Part shown: piece by piece, positions 19,447-24,604 of the stretch | Layout: each line of letters opens with the position of its first letter | Numbering within the stretch: the stretch's first letter is position 1 | Made by a program: the position numbers and the translations under genes | From: a virus | Taxonomy: Duplodnaviria; Caudoviricetes | DNA length: 64,000 nucleotides | IMG/VR virus record: IMGVR_UViG_3300049192_000016 | Coordinates: 1 to 64,000 of that record | Direction: 5' to 3' (one strand) | Notes under the pieces: generated by a model | Database searches by the model: none | Told to the model about the DNA's origin: nothing | The model's input: the letters and a program-made list of their open reading frames with translations, nothing else

Positions 19447-20034
19447 TTATTTCCAAACACTGACTTCAACAGTTTCATGTATGTGCCTTTCTGTGTAACC
19501 AGCACCTTGTGCATTAAGTTCTTCGATCATTTTTAACCTGTATTCTTTAGCAAGTCTCATAGCTTCCTCATAGCCAAAGTCATCTATAGAAAACCTTTTT
19601 GATTTTTGTTTCTTATTTTCTGTCCAAGATGCGGTTGCATACAATCTGTCACCTCCGTTATCCGTAATTGATACACCTGTTAAACCATGTTTATTTGGTT
19701 TTGTAGCATTTCTTTTGTTCTTGGTCATGGGAACACATCTAAGATTTTCAATCCTGTTGTTAGAGCTATCTCCGTCTATATGATCAATCTCAAACCCATG
19801 AGGTATAGGAAAATTAAACATTTCCCATATAATTCGGTGCACCATGACTCTTTTGTTTCTGTCAAAATATTTAACATTTACTCTGTAGTATTTCTGTCTA
19901 ATACCTCTTGAAAATGTACCTGCCTGTTTACCGTCTTGCTTTGAACGTTTGTACTTATAAACTCTATTAGGATTCCAAATTAAACAACTAGGAGATGTTT
20001 CATCATAAATAAACAACGCTTTCCAATCCATCAC
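19447..20034 (-). CDS. HNH endonuclease
   Basis: VHRIIWEMF...EIDHIDGDSSNNRIENLRCV; C-terminal AP2-like KSKRFSIDDFG. Confidence 0.92.
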   Translation of the reverse strand: MMDWKALFIYDETSPSCLIWNPNRVYKYKRSKQDGKQAGTFSRGIRQKYYRVNVKYFDRNKRVMVHRIIWEMFNFPIPHGFEIDHIDGDSSNNRIENLRCVPMTKNKRNATKPNKHGLTGVSITDNGGDRLYATASWTENKKQKSKRFSIDDFGYEEAMRLAKEYRLKMIEELNAQGAGYTERHIHETVEVSVWK

Positions 20035-20216
20035 AGACCCTCCAACTGCTGTTGCAACTTCTTCTGTTTTGCAAGTATCCTTGCTCTCAGAATCTTTTCA
20101 ACAACTTCCAAATCCTCTTTCTTCCGGTAATACGAAAGTTGTTGTGTGATCGCTGCAACAGTGCTGGAGAGAACGTGCTCCACAAGTTCTTCTATGGTAC
20201 AGTCTTGATAATTCAT
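20031..20216 (-). CDS. Small helical protein (61 aa, start MNYQDC), weak paralogue of 39206-39403 and 42746-42946
   Basis: True start lies downstream of the promoter at 20242-20270. Confidence 0.6.
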   Translation of the reverse strand: MNYQDCTIEELVEHVLSSTVAAITQQLSYYRKKEDLEVVEKILRARILAKQKKLQQQLEGL

Positions 20217-20241
20217 GTTATATCTTTCTTGATAAAATTCA

Positions 20242-20270
20242 AGTATAACATGAATGTTGATTCTTGTCAA
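20242..20270 (-). promoter_or_regulatory. Sigma70-type promoter
   Basis: TTGACA-N17-TATACT. Confidence 0.8.
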
Positions 20271-21184
20271 GTATTGTAAGCTACTTCACCTTTATTAACT
20301 TTGTCAAGGAATTTGTCATACCAATCTTCTTCATACAAATTGAATACATTGGTGTAATTGTTCCACGCATACTCTCGCCACCAGCCTGAAGCTATTGATG
20401 AACAAACCTTTATCATAGCCATTTCAAAAGCTTCTCGGGGTGTCTTCTTACCGGGAAACACAGATAAACTTCTCTCAATGGCCAAGGTCATTGCCTCTTC
20501 AAGTACAGAAAGTAGTTTAACTTGTTCATCACACTTATCAAACAATTCTTTGGAGCAAAACACTTCAGAAGTATCTTCTTTGAAGAACTCATAAGCCGGT
20601 TTATGCAGTCGCTTTACAGCTTGATGCACTTGGTCGTGCACAAAAATCTGTTTTACACCTGTACGGTCATTGTCAAAGAAATCCATTTTAGAAGTTTTTA
20701 ATGAAGGGTGAGAGTATGTATAAGTATCCTTCTCCCGCTCTTTCAGAAACGATTGATGCTCATCACGAATTTTAGCTCCAGCTTTTCTCAGTGAATGAAT
20801 ATCTTCCATAGTTTTCAAGAAATGTGGAGAGTCTTTTAGATACTTGTGCGACTCTTTGAGCAAATACAAAACATCAAGCGACGGAACAATCAAGCCATCC
20901 TCTGTCACAACATTGTCAGTCTGGCTCTCAACAAACTTGATGAGTTTTTCTGCACGAGAGCCTTCCCAAACAATTTCACACTCAGTGATTGTTCCGTCTT
21001 TTTGTTTCATGTAGAAACTCTTTCCTGATGAGATAGGAAAGCAAGCAACAACATCCTGTTTAGACTTCCTATAAGCTTCCCATTCTTCGTACGTTCCTAC
21101 AAGATCAACGTCATTAGCTTTACGCCAAGGGATGTGATGTTGAATAGCCAAGCTGCCAATGAGCAACATTTTAAGTCCTTTCAA
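20267..21184 (-). CDS. Putative nucleotidyltransferase (pol-beta superfamily N-terminal motif plus helical C-terminal domain)
   Basis: LLIGSLAI...RKANDVDLVG = hG[GS]...DhD motif. Confidence 0.65.
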   Translation of the reverse strand: MKGLKMLLIGSLAIQHHIPWRKANDVDLVGTYEEWEAYRKSKQDVVACFPISSGKSFYMKQKDGTITECEIVWEGSRAEKLIKFVESQTDNVVTEDGLIVPSLDVLYLLKESHKYLKDSPHFLKTMEDIHSLRKAGAKIRDEHQSFLKEREKDTYTYSHPSLKTSKMDFFDNDRTGVKQIFVHDQVHQAVKRLHKPAYEFFKEDTSEVFCSKELFDKCDEQVKLLSVLEEAMTLAIERSLSVFPGKKTPREAFEMAMIKVCSSIASGWWREYAWNNYTNVFNLYEEDWYDKFLDKVNKGEVAYNT

Positions 21185-21367
21185 TTAGCACGAAGAAGCA
21201 TACCAATCCACGTACTCTTCAGTAACATCCTCGTAAAGCTCTCGCACGTTTTCTACAAAATTGAATTCAATTCCATTGTCACGGGCCAATTGTCCTGCAG
21301 AATTCAGAATGTTTTTAGCTTCTTCAATTTGTTGTGCAATAATTTCAACAACTTCTTGCTTGTTCAT
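21185..21367 (-). CDS. Small protein ending DWYASSC (60 aa)
   Basis: RBS AAGGAG, start MNKQEVV. Confidence 0.8.
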   Translation of the reverse strand: MNKQEVVEIIAQQIEEAKNILNSAGQLARDNGIEFNFVENVRELYEDVTEEYVDWYASSC

Positions 21368-21378
21368 ATTAATTCTCC

Positions 21379-21633
21379 TTAGCAGTGATAAGACGAAGAT
21401 TGCCAATTAGGATGCAAGCTGTCAACTTCTTCAACAAACTCTTCCAGTTCGTATCCAAGCTTAACTTGTACGCCAGAAAGTTCCACAACCTCTTTAATTT
21501 CTTTCAAGAGATTTTTAATTGCAGCAGTTTTCTCTGCAACAAGCTTTGAACCTTCTTTCTGGCTAATAGGGGTTACACCAGCTTTCTTCATCAGTTCTTC
21601 GTAGCGTGCTTTAGAGATAGTTACATTAGTCAT
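21379..21633 (-). CDS. Small protein ending NWQSSSYHC (84 aa)
   Basis: ORF track; conserved C-terminus. Confidence 0.8.
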   Translation of the reverse strand: MTNVTISKARYEELMKKAGVTPISQKEGSKLVAEKTAAIKNLLKEIKEVVELSGVQVKLGYELEEFVEEVDSLHPNWQSSSYHC

Positions 21634-22220
21634 TTTTTACCTTTAAAAAGTATTAATTTTGTTGGCTCCTGAAGAGCATTGTATAATCTTGGATCAATTT
21701 CGTTTTTCCAATTTTCTGCCACTTGTTTTACATACTCTATTTTGTTTTCTAAATAGACATCTTGTGCTTTTTCTATTGTTTCATAAGTACCTAGATAGAT
21801 TTGTTCATTATCTATTGTTATGCAAGCCCTAAAGTTGTGTCCGTTTCTGTAAACACCCGTAGGGAGATCAAATTTCCTTTGTGTAGACTGTATTAGATTA
21901 TTAATACATTGAGGGACTAATACACATACCTCGGAAGAATAGTAGTAATTTCCCGGAAATAAAATATCTTTGTCAATGTGATACCCTTTTCCATAACCTA
22001 TCTGTGTGGTGTACCAGTCAGTAAATAATTGAAAATTTTCAAAGTGATTTTCAACCCCTATGTAACTTGTTGCAGACTTTTGTCGAACAGGACCTTGTTT
22101 ACATCTTTGCTGAATGGCTTGCCATACCGAGCCAGATATAGTATTAGTTTTTAAACCATTCAATCTAAAGGATTGAACCCAAAGATTATTTCTTTTAAAG
22201 TCAGGAACAGGCATCAGCAA
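21630..22220 (-). CDS. HNH/AP2-type endonuclease inserted in the W..SS.C array
   Basis: WQAIQQRC, FENFQLFTDW, YHIDKDIL...CVLVPQCINNL, IYLGTYETIEKAQDVY. Confidence 0.85.
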   Translation of the reverse strand: MLMPVPDFKRNNLWVQSFRLNGLKTNTISGSVWQAIQQRCKQGPVRQKSATSYIGVENHFENFQLFTDWYTTQIGYGKGYHIDKDILFPGNYYYSSEVCVLVPQCINNLIQSTQRKFDLPTGVYRNGHNFRACITIDNEQIYLGTYETIEKAQDVYLENKIEYVKQVAENWKNEIDPRLYNALQEPTKLILFKGKK

Positions 22221-22654
22221 CTTGAACTGTGCCAGTTACGAGATTGATATTCCATATCTTCCAGAATACCGAACAGCTTACCCAAAGAAGTTGTAGAGTC
22301 ATACTCATTTTCAACACCAGCTTCTTCTAGCAAATTACTCCACACATCCCCATTGTCACCCCAATCTTCAGAGTAGAGCAAGTAGTATTCTACACCAGAA
22401 ATACCTGCAATCAACTCTACCATACGCAAACTCTCGTCTGCAACTTTCGCCAAACTTTCTACCAAAGCGCTGTCAATTTGGGCATCCTCATCATCACTAT
22501 CTTCTACACTTTTTGCATGAGCAATAATTTCGTGCATTGCTGTTTCTGCTTTAGACTGAAAATCTGCCATATGTTTACTTGCATCTTTCTGTACAGCTTT
22601 TTGAACTTTCTTCAGCTCTTCAATCGTGTAACCACCAATGATAATTTCTTCCAT
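22214..22654 (-). CDS. Protein ending NWHSSSC (146 aa)
   Basis: RBS AAGGAG, start MEEIIIGG. Confidence 0.8.
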   Translation of the reverse strand: MEEIIIGGYTIEELKKVQKAVQKDASKHMADFQSKAETAMHEIIAHAKSVEDSDDEDAQIDSALVESLAKVADESLRMVELIAGISGVEYYLLYSEDWGDNGDVWSNLLEEAGVENEYDSTTSLGKLFGILEDMEYQSRNWHSSSC

Positions 22655-22668
22655 TTTCTTCTCCTTAA

Positions 22669-22887
22669 TTAGCAACTCAAAGACGAAGCATACCAACCGT
22701 CAGACTCTTCTCCGTACTCGTTGGTTTTACCTACGTCATTACCGTTGAAAGTTCCACCCATGCCGTAAGTAGGCTCAAATGTAAAACTCAAACCGTGTTC
22801 TTGTGCAAAGTCACATGCGTCAAACAGAGCTTGCTTGGCTTCTGCCACCAACTCACTCAACTTCTTGCTAGCTTCTTGCTTTTCCAT
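22669..22887 (-). CDS. Small protein ending GWYASSLSC (72 aa)
   Basis: RBS GGAGG; YGMGG motif and conserved C-terminus. Confidence 0.8.
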   Translation of the reverse strand: MEKQEASKKLSELVAEAKQALFDACDFAQEHGLSFTFEPTYGMGGTFNGNDVGKTNEYGEESDGWYASSLSC

Positions 22888-22928: not shown

Positions 22929-23375
22929 CTACTTCCTTCTATAAAATACCATATTATCAATTTTTACAACTCTCTTCATCTTGTGCTGCCACTCAGGACT
23001 AACACTCGTGTCATGGAAGAAAGTACACTCCCTACACACAGGTTCTAGCATAGACACTTCCCGAAGCATTGTCAAGCCTTCTAGATCAACTTTCTGCACT
23101 TTCTTCATTGTCATATTAGTGAACTGATGTTTCTCTAACACCACTTCACACGCTGTCATCCCTTTCTTGTGCATCCTGTAGAGGATAACATCAAGCACTG
23201 CACGAGATTGTTGCAAATTGTTGAAGGTTGTCTCTTGATGAATTGTTGCCGCTAAACAAGAAAGCTCCCAAGAGAACGCCGAAGGAGCATCCTCTACGAG
23301 AGCTTTTGATGTAAATAAAAGTAAACTGAATAGTGTAGTTTTAAACAGGTGTTTGAACAATATCAACCACTCCAA
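22929..23375 (-). CDS. SleB-like cell wall hydrolase
   Basis: CLAATIHQE (catalytic Glu position), AVLDVILYR, CEVVLEKHQFT, FFH, IDNMVFY. Confidence 0.8.
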   Translation of the reverse strand: MEWLILFKHLFKTTLFSLLLFTSKALVEDAPSAFSWELSCLAATIHQETTFNNLQQSRAVLDVILYRMHKKGMTACEVVLEKHQFTNMTMKKVQKVDLEGLTMLREVSMLEPVCRECTFFHDTSVSPEWQHKMKRVVKIDNMVFYRRK

Positions 23376-24604
23376 CTGTCAGGAATACCAATCTTCAATA
23401 TCTCCAAAGCATTATCATCCGCTGTCACTTGTGCAAAATGGTATTTCACATCCTCTACAGCTTTACCATTCCACTGATGTGTAATTGTTGTGTACATAGC
23501 CATTTCCACTTTGTTTTCAAACCTTTCATGACCTTCCCCGCCCGGAAGCTTTGTTGCAGCTAACATATGTGTAGACACAAACCCTCTAGAATATCCTTGA
23601 TTAAGGATTCCTTCCCAATAATCCAATCCTGCTGTTTCTCCATCCCTGTCTAGAATAGAATGATACATCATGTTCACAAACTCTCTATTTGTCTTGTCCC
23701 CGTACAACAGAGAACCTTCATAAGAATTTATCAACATATCTGAAAATTCAGTCTCATAAACAACAGCAGCAAGATTATTGCTGATATGCCAATTCATCCC
23801 ATCTAAATCAGCAGGACGATTAAAAATTGTTACATACTGCTCTGTCAGTGTTTGTCTAATGGGAGTCCAGTTGAAGTCGTAAATTTCTCCATCTACTCTC
23901 ATTGCTGTAACAACTTGCATAGCCAGCAAGTCTTGATTGCCATACAATGCATTCGATCCGAATTGTGTGTAGCTAATCGTTCCATATCCACCATCACCCC
24001 AATCTGCACCCCAGCTATTACGAATTATATAACTACCTCCATCAATATTGCTGTCCCACCCAATAATATTGACACAATGATTACCAAGCACTATACCATT
24101 CCCATGTCCAATCTGTGTCGATAAACTTCCTGACTCGTTGTACAGGAAATCTCTAACTTTGAAACTTGTAATAACAGACTTCCCCTGCGCTAAATAAGAT
24201 AGTACATTATCTCTGATTTGCTCGGAAGTCTGAAGAGTATTCAAAGACATGAACATATCTACTTTATAATCTTTTGCAAAGTAGTCATACATCCATTGTG
24301 GAGGTTTTGCATATAGATTCTGCTCGGTATAATTCCAAACATATTCGGGGGCAATACCATTGGATTCGGATAAATATAAATTGACAGCCGCAACATTACC
24401 ACTATCAATCGAAGTGGTTCCTAAAGCCTCTCGTCCATCGTAATAAGAAAATAATCTAGAGAGCACAGGGATAGGGTGTCCTGCTTGATTCATCATCTCA
24501 TAAAGAGAAGCTACAATAGATGACGGGACGCATGTCCCCCATGATCCTTGATCTGTTATTGATGATTCATATTTTATATTGTAATACTTAGATGCATATG
24601 TCAT
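23363..24604 (-). CDS. Papain-like (C1A) cysteine protease fused to DUF4214-like domain(s)
   Basis: DQGSWGTC (Gln/Cys), GNHCV (His), IRNSWG (Asn); C-terminal YVTIFNRPADLDGMNWH and FVNMMYHSILDRDGETAGLDYWEGIL. Confidence 0.85.
   Translation of the reverse strand: MTYASKYYNIKYESSITDQGSWGTCVPSSIVASLYEMMNQAGHPIPVLSRLFSYYDGREALGTTSIDSGNVAAVNLYLSESNGIAPEYVWNYTEQNLYAKPPQWMYDYFAKDYKVDMFMSLNTLQTSEQIRDNVLSYLAQGKSVITSFKVRDFLYNESGSLSTQIGHGNGIVLGNHCVNIIGWDSNIDGGSYIIRNSWGADWGDGGYGTISYTQFGSNALYGNQDLLAMQVVTAMRVDGEIYDFNWTPIRQTLTEQYVTIFNRPADLDGMNWHISNNLAAVVYETEFSDMLINSYEGSLLYGDKTNREFVNMMYHSILDRDGETAGLDYWEGILNQGYSRGFVSTHMLAATKLPGGEGHERFENKVEMAMYTTITHQWNGKAVEDVKYHFAQVTADDNALEILKIGIPDSWSG

Follow-up and report, generated by a model that had tools for sequence, protein, structure and literature searches.

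A phage nucleotidyltransferase family linked to upstream arrays of small paralogous proteins with a conserved Trp/Ser-Ser/Cys C-terminal tail

Introduction

MntA (of the HepT-MntA type VII toxin-antitoxin system), GlnE and GlnD are enzymes that put a nucleoside monophosphate (NMP) on a tyrosine of a folded partner protein. In a different described system, MenA1, an antitoxin of 68 amino acids (aa) forming one long helix, is encoded immediately upstream of MenT1 and blocks its active sites by binding (PMC10435456). The last 17 residues of MenA1 are disordered in the crystal structure of the complex (PMC10435456). In this study a locus in a virus of the class Caudoviricetes (IMG/VR record IMGVR_UViG_3300049192_000016) was analysed, in which a nucleotidyltransferase gene lies behind four small genes whose products end in a common tail, W-x-x-S-S-x-x-C or a six-residue form of it. 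The locus had been put forward from its sequence (hereafter the original prediction) as a candidate enzyme/substrate system. The window, that is the whole stretch of DNA analysed, comprises the first 64 kb of the 90,665-bp record, which is complete according to CheckV. When the region was compared at the nucleotide level with 50,697 phage records, zero matches were obtained, and the virus therefore has no close sequenced relative. Our analysis shows that the enzyme and the tail proteins constitute a conserved, virus-only two-family module, in which one nucleotidyltransferase is preceded by a probably co-transcribed array of one to six tail paralogues.

Linkage of the nucleotidyltransferase and tail families

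A total of 77 IMG/VR loci, each with at least 1.5 kb of upstream DNA, were picked by the enzyme alone. Co-oriented tail genes (one to five) were found within 2.5 kb upstream of the enzyme in 72 of these 77 loci, with one, two, three, four and five tail genes in 22, 25, 14, 6 and 5 loci, respectively, and with a median gap of 51 bp between array and enzyme. None of the 6,842 opposite-strand open reading frames (ORFs) at these loci carries the motif. Two of the five exceptional loci bear variant tails (WSSSNCY and GWAPSNVCW endings). Loci were also sampled from the tail side, by an A-Y-G-M-G-G-Y DNA pattern search and by a tail-only profile search. All 12 pattern-found tail proteins lie on enzyme-carrying contigs and the enzyme is present on none of the 27 unrelated pattern matches, and in the tail-only profile search the enzyme follows downstream of the tail gene in all four representatives. 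Starting from the tails, the enzyme was found downstream in every case with enough DNA.

Clustering of neighbouring genes in 87 loci placed the tail families in 71 and 28 loci and the next family in 18; no other neighbouring gene family recurs beside the enzyme. Tail genes and enzyme also occur together in isolated phages, including phAPEC8 (three tail genes), Ralstonia phage RsoM2USA (two), JS98 (five), Acinetobacter phage Berthold (two), Myxococcus phage Mx1 and Citrobacter phage Tr1, and in the Erwinia jumbo phage Hallingskeid a tail gene is found 3.7 kb upstream of the enzyme on the same strand. The hosts of isolated phages bearing the module comprise E. coli, Ralstonia, Acinetobacter, Myxococcus, Citrobacter and Erwinia. 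These results show that the enzyme and tail families are physically and evolutionarily linked. The original prediction had named a lack of linkage of the two families across genomes among the results that would refute it, and linkage was found decisively in both directions; because of this result and of the confirmed pol-beta fold described below, the dedicated enzyme/partner system that it proposed is well supported.

The gene array in the window

Six minus-strand genes are packed tightly from position 22887 down to position 20267, in the order A, B, endonuclease, C, D and enzyme. The features are as follows.

Tail protein A, 22669..22887, minus strand: 72 aa, C-terminus GWYASSLSC; matches phrog_899 (E 1.4e-13); ribosome-binding site (RBS) GGAGGA
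Tail protein B, 22214..22654, minus strand: 146 aa, C-terminus NWHSSSC; long-bodied subfamily; RBS AAGGAG, ATG at 22654
HNH/AP2-like free-standing endonuclease gene, 21630..22220, minus strand: 194-196 aa; matches phrog_953 (E 2.5e-41) and phrog_374 (E 1.2e-24)
Tail protein C, 21379..21633, minus strand: 84 aa, C-terminus NWQSSSYHC; RBS AAAGG
Tail protein D, 21185..21367, minus strand: 60 aa, C-terminus DWYASSC; RBS AAGGAG, ATG at 21367
DUF7277+DUF7275 nucleotidyltransferase, ORF 20267..21184, minus strand: probable start ATG 21169, 300 aa; matches PF23942, PF23940 and phrog_2141
Promoter-like site TTGACA-17-TATGCT, 23047..23075, minus strand: found by consensus scan, 5' of the first tail gene; the transcription unit possibly starts here

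The four co-oriented tail genes and their C-termini were found on the DNA as the original prediction had described them. Its enzyme gene of 305 aa corresponds to a real ORF, the likely true start of which is the ATG at 21169; this ATG is preceded by the RBS AAAGGA, agrees with the N-terminus of the family alignment and lies 15 nucleotides past the stop codon of gene D. The HNH gene that it had placed in the array matches PHROG 'HNH endonuclease' families but gave no Pfam HNH match. This endonuclease is inserted inside the array and does not belong to the module. A Shine-Dalgarno sequence precedes the ATG of all four tail genes by 5-9 nucleotides. The gene B stop and the endonuclease ATG overlap in TGATG, and the endonuclease stop and the gene C start overlap in ATGA.

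Among the 1,566 ORFs of the complete 90,665-bp genome exactly these four end in the motif, while 0.28 would be expected from residue composition; chance does not account for the tail motif in this genome. The codons for the tail serines vary between the paralogues (TCG/TCT/TCA/AGT) and include both TCN and AGY types, and therefore conservation acts at the protein level and does not reflect a DNA repeat.

The tail proteins

A total of 178 distinct motif-ending proteins from related loci were used for the analysis. The median length of these proteins is 84 aa and the median net charge is -8; 94% of them are acidic. The tail proteins have a median isoelectric point (pI) of 4.4. The eight-residue tail W-x-x-S-S-x-x-C is found in 127 and the six-residue form in 45 proteins. 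The original prediction held that the four window proteins share little beyond helical acidic bodies and their C-termini. This did not stand, as 159 of the 178 proteins, all four window proteins among them, still formed one BLASTP cluster after the last nine residues had been cut off. The four window proteins are true paralogues of one family. The common body opens with an amphipathic helix, the end of which reads E-A-x-x-L-A-x-E-x-G-[LVI]; a short F-x-[LF] strand comes next, and then an acidic linker that varies, followed by the tail. The window proteins show the helix, a G-[ILV]-x-F-x-[FL] strand, the acidic linker and a W-x-[SPA]-S-S-x-x-C tail or its six-residue variant. In an alignment of 176 sequences, the members of which were preselected by a motif pattern, tryptophan, serine and cysteine of the tail are 100% conserved.

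For each of the window paralogues, related phages have a separate subfamily of orthologues. Subfamily A, which has an invariant Y-G-M-G-G, is the commonest and is conserved along its whole length; alignment of 31 protein A orthologues revealed F35, M43, G44, G45, W65, S68 and C72 as invariant residues. Protein B has 12 orthologues of about 137-189 aa in related loci, which end in W-x-S-S-x-C. Orthologues of protein C (76-90 aa, up to 59% identical, ending in W-N-S-S-S-Y-x-C) were found in more than 12 loci, and orthologues of protein D in loci L013, L015 and L036. In an AlphaFold 2 (AF2) model of protein A, with a predicted local distance difference test score (pLDDT) of 81.6, residues 3-30 form a helix and a strand at 45-47, following G-M-G-G, pairs with the tryptophan-containing strand 65-67. 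W65 is packed into this predicted hairpin, and the last five residues protrude free.

A profile search with subfamily A gave 964 clusters at 50% identity, in which the match nearly always reaches the last residue. Invariance was counted in the best 150 of these 964 clusters, taking one representative per cluster. Tryptophan and cysteine are invariant in 150 of 150 representatives, and the two serines are invariant in the 146 that possess the eight-residue tail. Cysteine is the exact last residue in 147 representatives, and the other three have one extra residue. Threonine, serine in place of cysteine, and phenylalanine or tyrosine in place of tryptophan never appeared in the 150 representatives. 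Such conservation resembles that of a reactive site and points to chemistry and not mere docking, because tryptophan, the serine pair and cysteine are essentially invariant and nearly all representatives end exactly at cysteine.

No significant match for any tail protein was found in Pfam, NCBIfam or PADLOC, and protein B also has no PHROG match. Comparison of the tail-protein model with 48,161 Protein Data Bank chains revealed no fold match (best Z 3.4), and an ESM Atlas search with the model returned unnamed clusters only.

Some tail proteins carry additional N-terminal parts. At L058:2515-3033 the tail unit is fused to an N-terminal WYL_2 Sm/SH3-like beta-barrel (PF10902, E 3e-8), and the tail proteins P0123 and P0161 have similar-looking beta-rich (SH3-like) N-termini with no Pfam match. 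In view of these fusions, the helix-strand-tail unit is portable. In a few tail proteins a second, internal copy of the motif (W-x-x-S-S-C, then tyrosine) occurs about 20-25 residues before the terminal one, as in phAPEC8 gp190 (L001:3350-3628), JS98 orf126 (L085:2715-2942) and L028. The double motif could reflect processing after the internal cysteine, or a free carboxylate that is not essential. A protein of 254 aa from another metagenome (P0218) was read as an endonuclease-like N-terminal domain fused to a subfamily A tail protein. In the family phrog_899 (221 positions), the first half aligns with the window endonuclease and the last third with protein A; because the two portions match separately, this family seems to be built partly on fused or read-through gene calls.

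The enzyme

Analysis of the window enzyme with Pfam, at a curated cut-off of 27 bits for its domains, revealed DUF7277 (PF23942) at residues 6-82 (50.2 bits, E 4.5e-13) and DUF7275 (PF23940) at residues 105-286 (209.8 bits, E 4.2e-62). The enzyme also matches phrog_2141 (E 8e-91). An alignment of 38 homologues, all of which match both domains, was later enlarged to 89 sequences (84 tail-linked enzymes and five without a canonical tail). The residues G10-S11, D27, K110, H113, H183-D184, H187, E229-E230, R238 and R270 are invariant in the 89 enzymes, and D25 is present in 88 of them; S112, E237 and K259 are further invariant or near-invariant residues. The third carboxylate, E68, is found in 77 of the 84 tail-linked enzymes and in all five without a canonical tail. 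A candidate covariation of tail loss with Y49, P50 and W73, which looked promising at four loci, was not used as evidence, these residues being only 49-77% conserved among tail-bearing loci.

The AF2 model of the enzyme has a pLDDT of 92.9. Its first approximately 155 residues match MenT1 (8an4) with Z 10.1 and a root-mean-square deviation of 4.2 over 154 residues (Foldseek E 1e-5); other fold matches of this N-terminal part are ANT(2'') (Z 9.2), MenT3/TglT (Z 9.1), MenT4 (Z 9.0), LnuA (Z 8.5) and JHP933, and the fold also resembles CCA-adding enzymes and poly(A) polymerases. The enzyme thus shows the hG[GS] and [DE]x[DE] motifs, the core alpha-beta fold and the third carboxylate of the pol-beta superfamily. 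It is a pol-beta nucleotidyltransferase with intact motifs and belongs structurally to the MenT/ANT type, because the GS and DxD residues are invariant or nearly so, E68 is nearly so, and the modelled fold matches MenT, ANT and LnuA. The class named by the original prediction is confirmed by this fold. The enzyme is not basic (median pI 6.0).

No structural match to solved folds was found for residues 156-305, and at E<=10 the C-terminal half matched DUF7275 alone in Pfam, with no HD, zincin or other family. All 89 enzymes keep H-D-x-x-H (183-187) on one predicted helix together with E-E (229-230) and E-R (237-238) on a later helix. In the model these motifs look like a possible second metal site, separate from that of the DxD residues; the H-D-x-x-H/E-E motifs are not explained by any family or fold match. 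A search of the enzyme profile against Protein Data Bank sequences gave nothing at E<=1, PADLOC and NCBIfam gave no significant match, and longer fused forms of the enzyme were sought and none found, which is weak evidence. None of the 524 enzyme homologues in a metagenome protein collection bears a functional name.

Distribution of the module

With tblastn the enzyme family was detected in 684 phage records, among them T4-like phages (JS98, Bp7, Acinetobacter and Aeromonas phages), Phapecoctavirus, Pseudomonas phiPsa374-like phages, and phages of Stenotrophomonas, Ralstonia, Klebsiella and others; some of the enzyme-bearing T4-like and phAPEC8-like phages were isolated on E. coli K-12. Among 185,579 bacterial and archaeal species, with one genome per species, only seven enzyme matches were found. 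These are probably phage DNA, because all seven lie on contigs of metagenome-assembled genomes (MAGs) and six of the seven have tail genes. The enzyme family is viral and essentially absent from cellular genomes. DUF7275 proteins of 508 and 571 aa are present in giant eukaryotic viruses, namely Sylvanvirus (A0A3G5AJ90) and Satyrvirus (A0A3G5AE53), with BFVD/Foldseek E values of 4.5e-17 and 6.6e-10, respectively; the enzyme family thus extends beyond phages. The array lies between genes 41 and 61 in phage Berthold and in the e/nudE block in JS98, and the genes of the module are located in early/middle-type regions.

Proposed mechanism and alternative explanations

We tentatively favour a mechanism in which the enzyme nucleotidylates a serine of the tail, and consider it possible, though short of an even chance. 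The helix-strand body of each tail protein would anchor the tryptophan and expose a short stub, S-S-x(0-2)-Cys-COOH. The body would dock on the enzyme and the C-terminal stub would enter the catalytic cleft, where a nucleotidyl group would be moved from a nucleoside triphosphate to the serine hydroxyl, much as ANT(2'') and LnuA act on antibiotic hydroxyls and MenT on the 3'-OH of tRNA. The nearby cysteine thiol may help to bind the active-site metals or may react afterwards, and, owing to the variable bodies and N-terminal add-ons (for example, the Sm/SH3-like ones), the tasks of the modified paralogues early in lytic infection would differ from one to the next. This mechanism is favoured because the invariance of serine, cysteine and tryptophan exceeds normal docking needs, because a single enzyme beside many paralogues that diverge and accrete domains is what a modifier with its substrates looks like, and because nucleotidylation of hydroxyls is the chemistry of this structural class. 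A more far-reaching form, in which W-x-x-S-S-x-x-Cys would be a portable tag whose serine is O-nucleotidylated and then attacked by the thiol, giving a covalent cap or adduct that arms small effectors in lytic infection, we regard as quite unlikely.

Several points weigh against nucleotidylation of the tail serine. Phages of Gordonia and Streptomyces have distant enzyme homologues of 25-28% identity in which the catalytic and C-terminal motifs, H-D-x-x-H, E-E and E-R included, are preserved; these homologues are not accompanied by tail genes and lack a 30-residue hairpin insert. All catalytic residues are likewise kept at four loci without a canonical tail (L046, which has a variant tail, and L057, L069 and L136, which have no tail upstream). 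It is probable that the primary substrate of the enzyme was once a different one, and it may be so still, because the tail-less actinophage homologues keep these motifs and giant viruses carry DUF7275. The closest solved relatives of the enzyme act on tRNA or small molecules and not on proteins. A free carboxylate does not seem to be strictly required, because a few members have an internal motif or one residue past the cysteine. The acceptor, the nucleotide and the consequence of the reaction are guesses.

A serious rival, which the original prediction did not consider, is that the tail proteins are inhibitors or regulators of the enzyme, because a small helical protein from an upstream gene blocks MenT1. 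The acidic tail proteins would then inhibit, time or buffer an RNA- or tRNA-directed nucleotidyltransferase as pseudo-substrates of the MenA1 kind and would themselves stay unmodified; they would bind across the positively charged cleft with the Ser/Cys stub in the acceptor or metal site, and the enzyme would serve host takeover or RNA repair. MenT1 is the top structural match, and in gene order, size and helical character the tail proteins are the same as MenA1 (PMC10435456). Their low pI is in keeping with such binding; the enzyme, however, is not basic. The full catalytic motifs of the tail-less homologues suggest that the tails are accessory, the near-absence of the enzyme from cellular genomes fits a host-harming activity, and one of 38 enzyme family members shows a weak AbiEii match (E 0.009). 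On the other hand, as many as six diverging paralogues for one enzyme, with extra domains on some of them, are unlike antitoxins, the extreme tail is here the most conserved part whereas MenA1 acts via its helix, and the invariance of both serines and cysteine exceeds the usual demands of binding. On balance we consider such regulation doubtful.

It is unlikely that the tail proteins are targeting adaptors, of which tail and core would dock on the enzyme while the variable body or N-terminal domain recruits a protein or RNA target for nucleotidylation. The constant tail and core beside variable bodies and copy number, the many partners per enzyme and the occasional fusion to WYL_2 domains of the Sm/SH3-like type, a type of module that typically binds ligands or nucleic acids, are consistent with adaptors. 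Most members, however, have 60-85 aa, with little past the core and the acidic linker and scant space for a surface that could bind a target, conservation in the commonest subfamily extends over the full length, and the strict Ser/Ser/Cys invariance would be left unexplained. That same invariance could be accounted for by a maturation like that of ribosomally synthesised and post-translationally modified peptides (RiPPs), in which the enzyme would activate a tail serine as a leaving group and the cysteine thiol would close a thioether (lanthionine-type) ring or adduct, capping the proteins. Common lanthionine rings of lanthipeptides have a Ser-to-Cys spacing of 3-4 residues. This spacing is matched by the dominant eight-residue tail, whereas the short W-x-x-S-S-C tails would yield rings of one or two residues. 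Several 'precursors' per enzyme recall promiscuous RiPP synthetases, and H-D-x-x-H with E-E/E-R could be a second metal site, but these motifs are also found in tail-less homologues and no recurring protease, exporter or cyclase lies nearby. To our knowledge there is no RiPP pathway with a pol-beta nucleotidyltransferase, and we rate such a maturation as very unlikely. The idea that two early-gene families merely travel together with no direct interaction is highly improbable: other small genes do lie between array and enzyme in some phages (JS98, Hallingskeid), but adjacency is kept in phages that infect Proteobacteria and Myxococcota as well as on contigs placed in MAG bins of Bacteroidota, Bdellovibrionota and Saccharibacteria, and it persists at 36-45% enzyme identity with all other neighbours changing.

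The interpretation given in the original prediction is partly supported. For the roles that it suggested, anti-defence or virion loading, nothing was found in support; the genes lie in early/middle-type regions and PADLOC gave no match. Its likening of the tails to RiPP and ubiquitin-like proteins also fails, as described in the comparison below.

Other features of the region

Promoter-like sites in the region are no more numerous than in shuffled sequence, and the site at 23047..23075 is therefore only a lead. A second promoter-like site, close to the consensus (TTGACA, 17 nucleotides, TG-n-TATACT; 11 of 12 matches), occurs at 20242-20270 on the minus strand and begins at the enzyme stop codon; it would drive a small gene (20031-20270) and an HNH_3/AP2 endonuclease gene (19447-20034). 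The genes directly 5' of the array are a cell-wall hydrolase of 148 aa (22929-23375, minus strand; Pfam Hydrolase_2, E 1.3e-10) and a peptidase-like protein of 413 aa (23363-24604, minus strand). Of the related loci, only 18 have the hydrolase 5' of the module.

An RNA-repair neighbourhood was rejected as a general feature of the module, since no more than 7 of the 94 loci have an RNA ligase at a distance of up to about 5 kb. In Erwinia phage Hallingskeid Pnk and an RNA ligase lie beside the array, and an RNA ligase is found near the Annadreamy homologue. RNA-handling neighbours occur at L141:3730-5325 (TROVE/Ro60-like) and at L088:703-3489, L084:2016-2675 and L142:51-944 (T4-type RNA ligase, polynucleotide kinase and other RNA ligases).

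Significance

Neither the enzyme nor the tail family has a name, structure or function. The module was not found described in a literature search on the DUF and PHROG identifiers, phage nucleotidyltransferases, C-terminal cysteine, AMPylation and phAPEC8 genes. The enzyme family is carried by at least 684 sequenced phages, and the commonest tail subfamily comprises nearly a thousand clusters at 50% identity. A system of protein nucleotidylation or tail maturation would be new, and so would the multi-partner regulation of a toxin-like RNA nucleotidyltransferase in host takeover; with either of them, thousands of phage genes now called 'hypothetical' would gain an annotation. An invariant Trp/Ser-Ser/terminal-Cys tag tied to one nucleotidyltransferase of predicted activity constitutes a clear and cheaply testable hypothesis. 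If true, the formation of a covalent cap would represent a virus-specific post-translational chemistry of a new kind.

Comparison with known systems

The analogy with ubiquitin-like conjugation drawn in the original prediction is not borne out. The tail-protein model is a long helix with a small hairpin ending in cysteine, with no beta-grasp fold and no GG end, and the partner is a pol-beta nucleotidyltransferase and not a Rossmann-type E1, none of which was found. The module resembles RiPP systems such as prochlorosins/ProcM in having paralogous short genes that share a recognition element beside one modifying enzyme. However, RiPPs have a conserved leader and a variable core, whereas here the C-terminal 'core' is conserved and the body variable. 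The tail proteins are, moreover, folded and acidic with lengths of 60-150 aa, neither a protease nor an exporter is conserved nearby, the enzyme is not of a known RiPP class, and Pfam scans gave no RiPP-enzyme matches. The RiPP analogy of the original prediction is accordingly no better placed.

RlaP (PF10127) is likewise a pol-beta nucleotidyltransferase with a helical domain and sometimes has RNA-repair genes nearby; however, none of the 38 enzyme members matches PF10127, and an RNA ligase is near only the 7 of 94 loci mentioned above. ANT(2'')-Ia (4xje) and LnuA (4wh5) share the two-lobed architecture (Z 9.2 and 8.5) and O-nucleotidylate hydroxyls; unlike the phage enzyme, they act on small-molecule substrates and have no partner proteins, and the sequence identity in the VIA alignment is only 10-11%.

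In its way of working the module comes nearest either to MenAT1, as a nucleotidyltransferase with a small partner encoded upstream, or to MntA-HepT, as a nucleotidyltransferase that would modify a dedicated partner protein. The toxins MenT and AbiEii share with the enzyme the conserved GS/DxD residues and a conserved lysine and aspartic acid in the helical lobe. The window enzyme has no match to the AbiEii family (DUF1814, PF08843) at E<=1, and the single match among 38 homologues (E 0.0088) is below the gathering score; the similarity of the enzyme to MenT is at the fold level only. In MenA1-MenT1 of M. tuberculosis (8an4, 8an5) a gene for a small long-helix protein also lies directly upstream of the nucleotidyltransferase gene. 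The phage enzyme differs from MenT1 in an extra, unmatched C-terminal region of 150 residues and in having one to six partners, compared with one antitoxin, and the invariant part of these partners is the extreme C-terminal W/SS/C tail, whereas MenA1 works through its helix. Unlike type II and type VII toxin-antitoxin systems, which are two-gene addiction modules of bacterial chromosomes or plasmids with a single cognate antitoxin, the module is found in lytic viruses only and has one to six partner genes.

Comparison with MntA, GlnE and GlnD revealed no sequence or Pfam relationship, and the candidate acceptor in the phage module is a serine in a C-terminal stub and not a tyrosine. What these enzymes have in common with the mechanism favoured here is that a minimal pol-beta nucleotidyltransferase moves an NMP to a hydroxyl of a dedicated partner protein that is encoded, or acts, alongside the enzyme, as the phage enzyme may do with its tail proteins.

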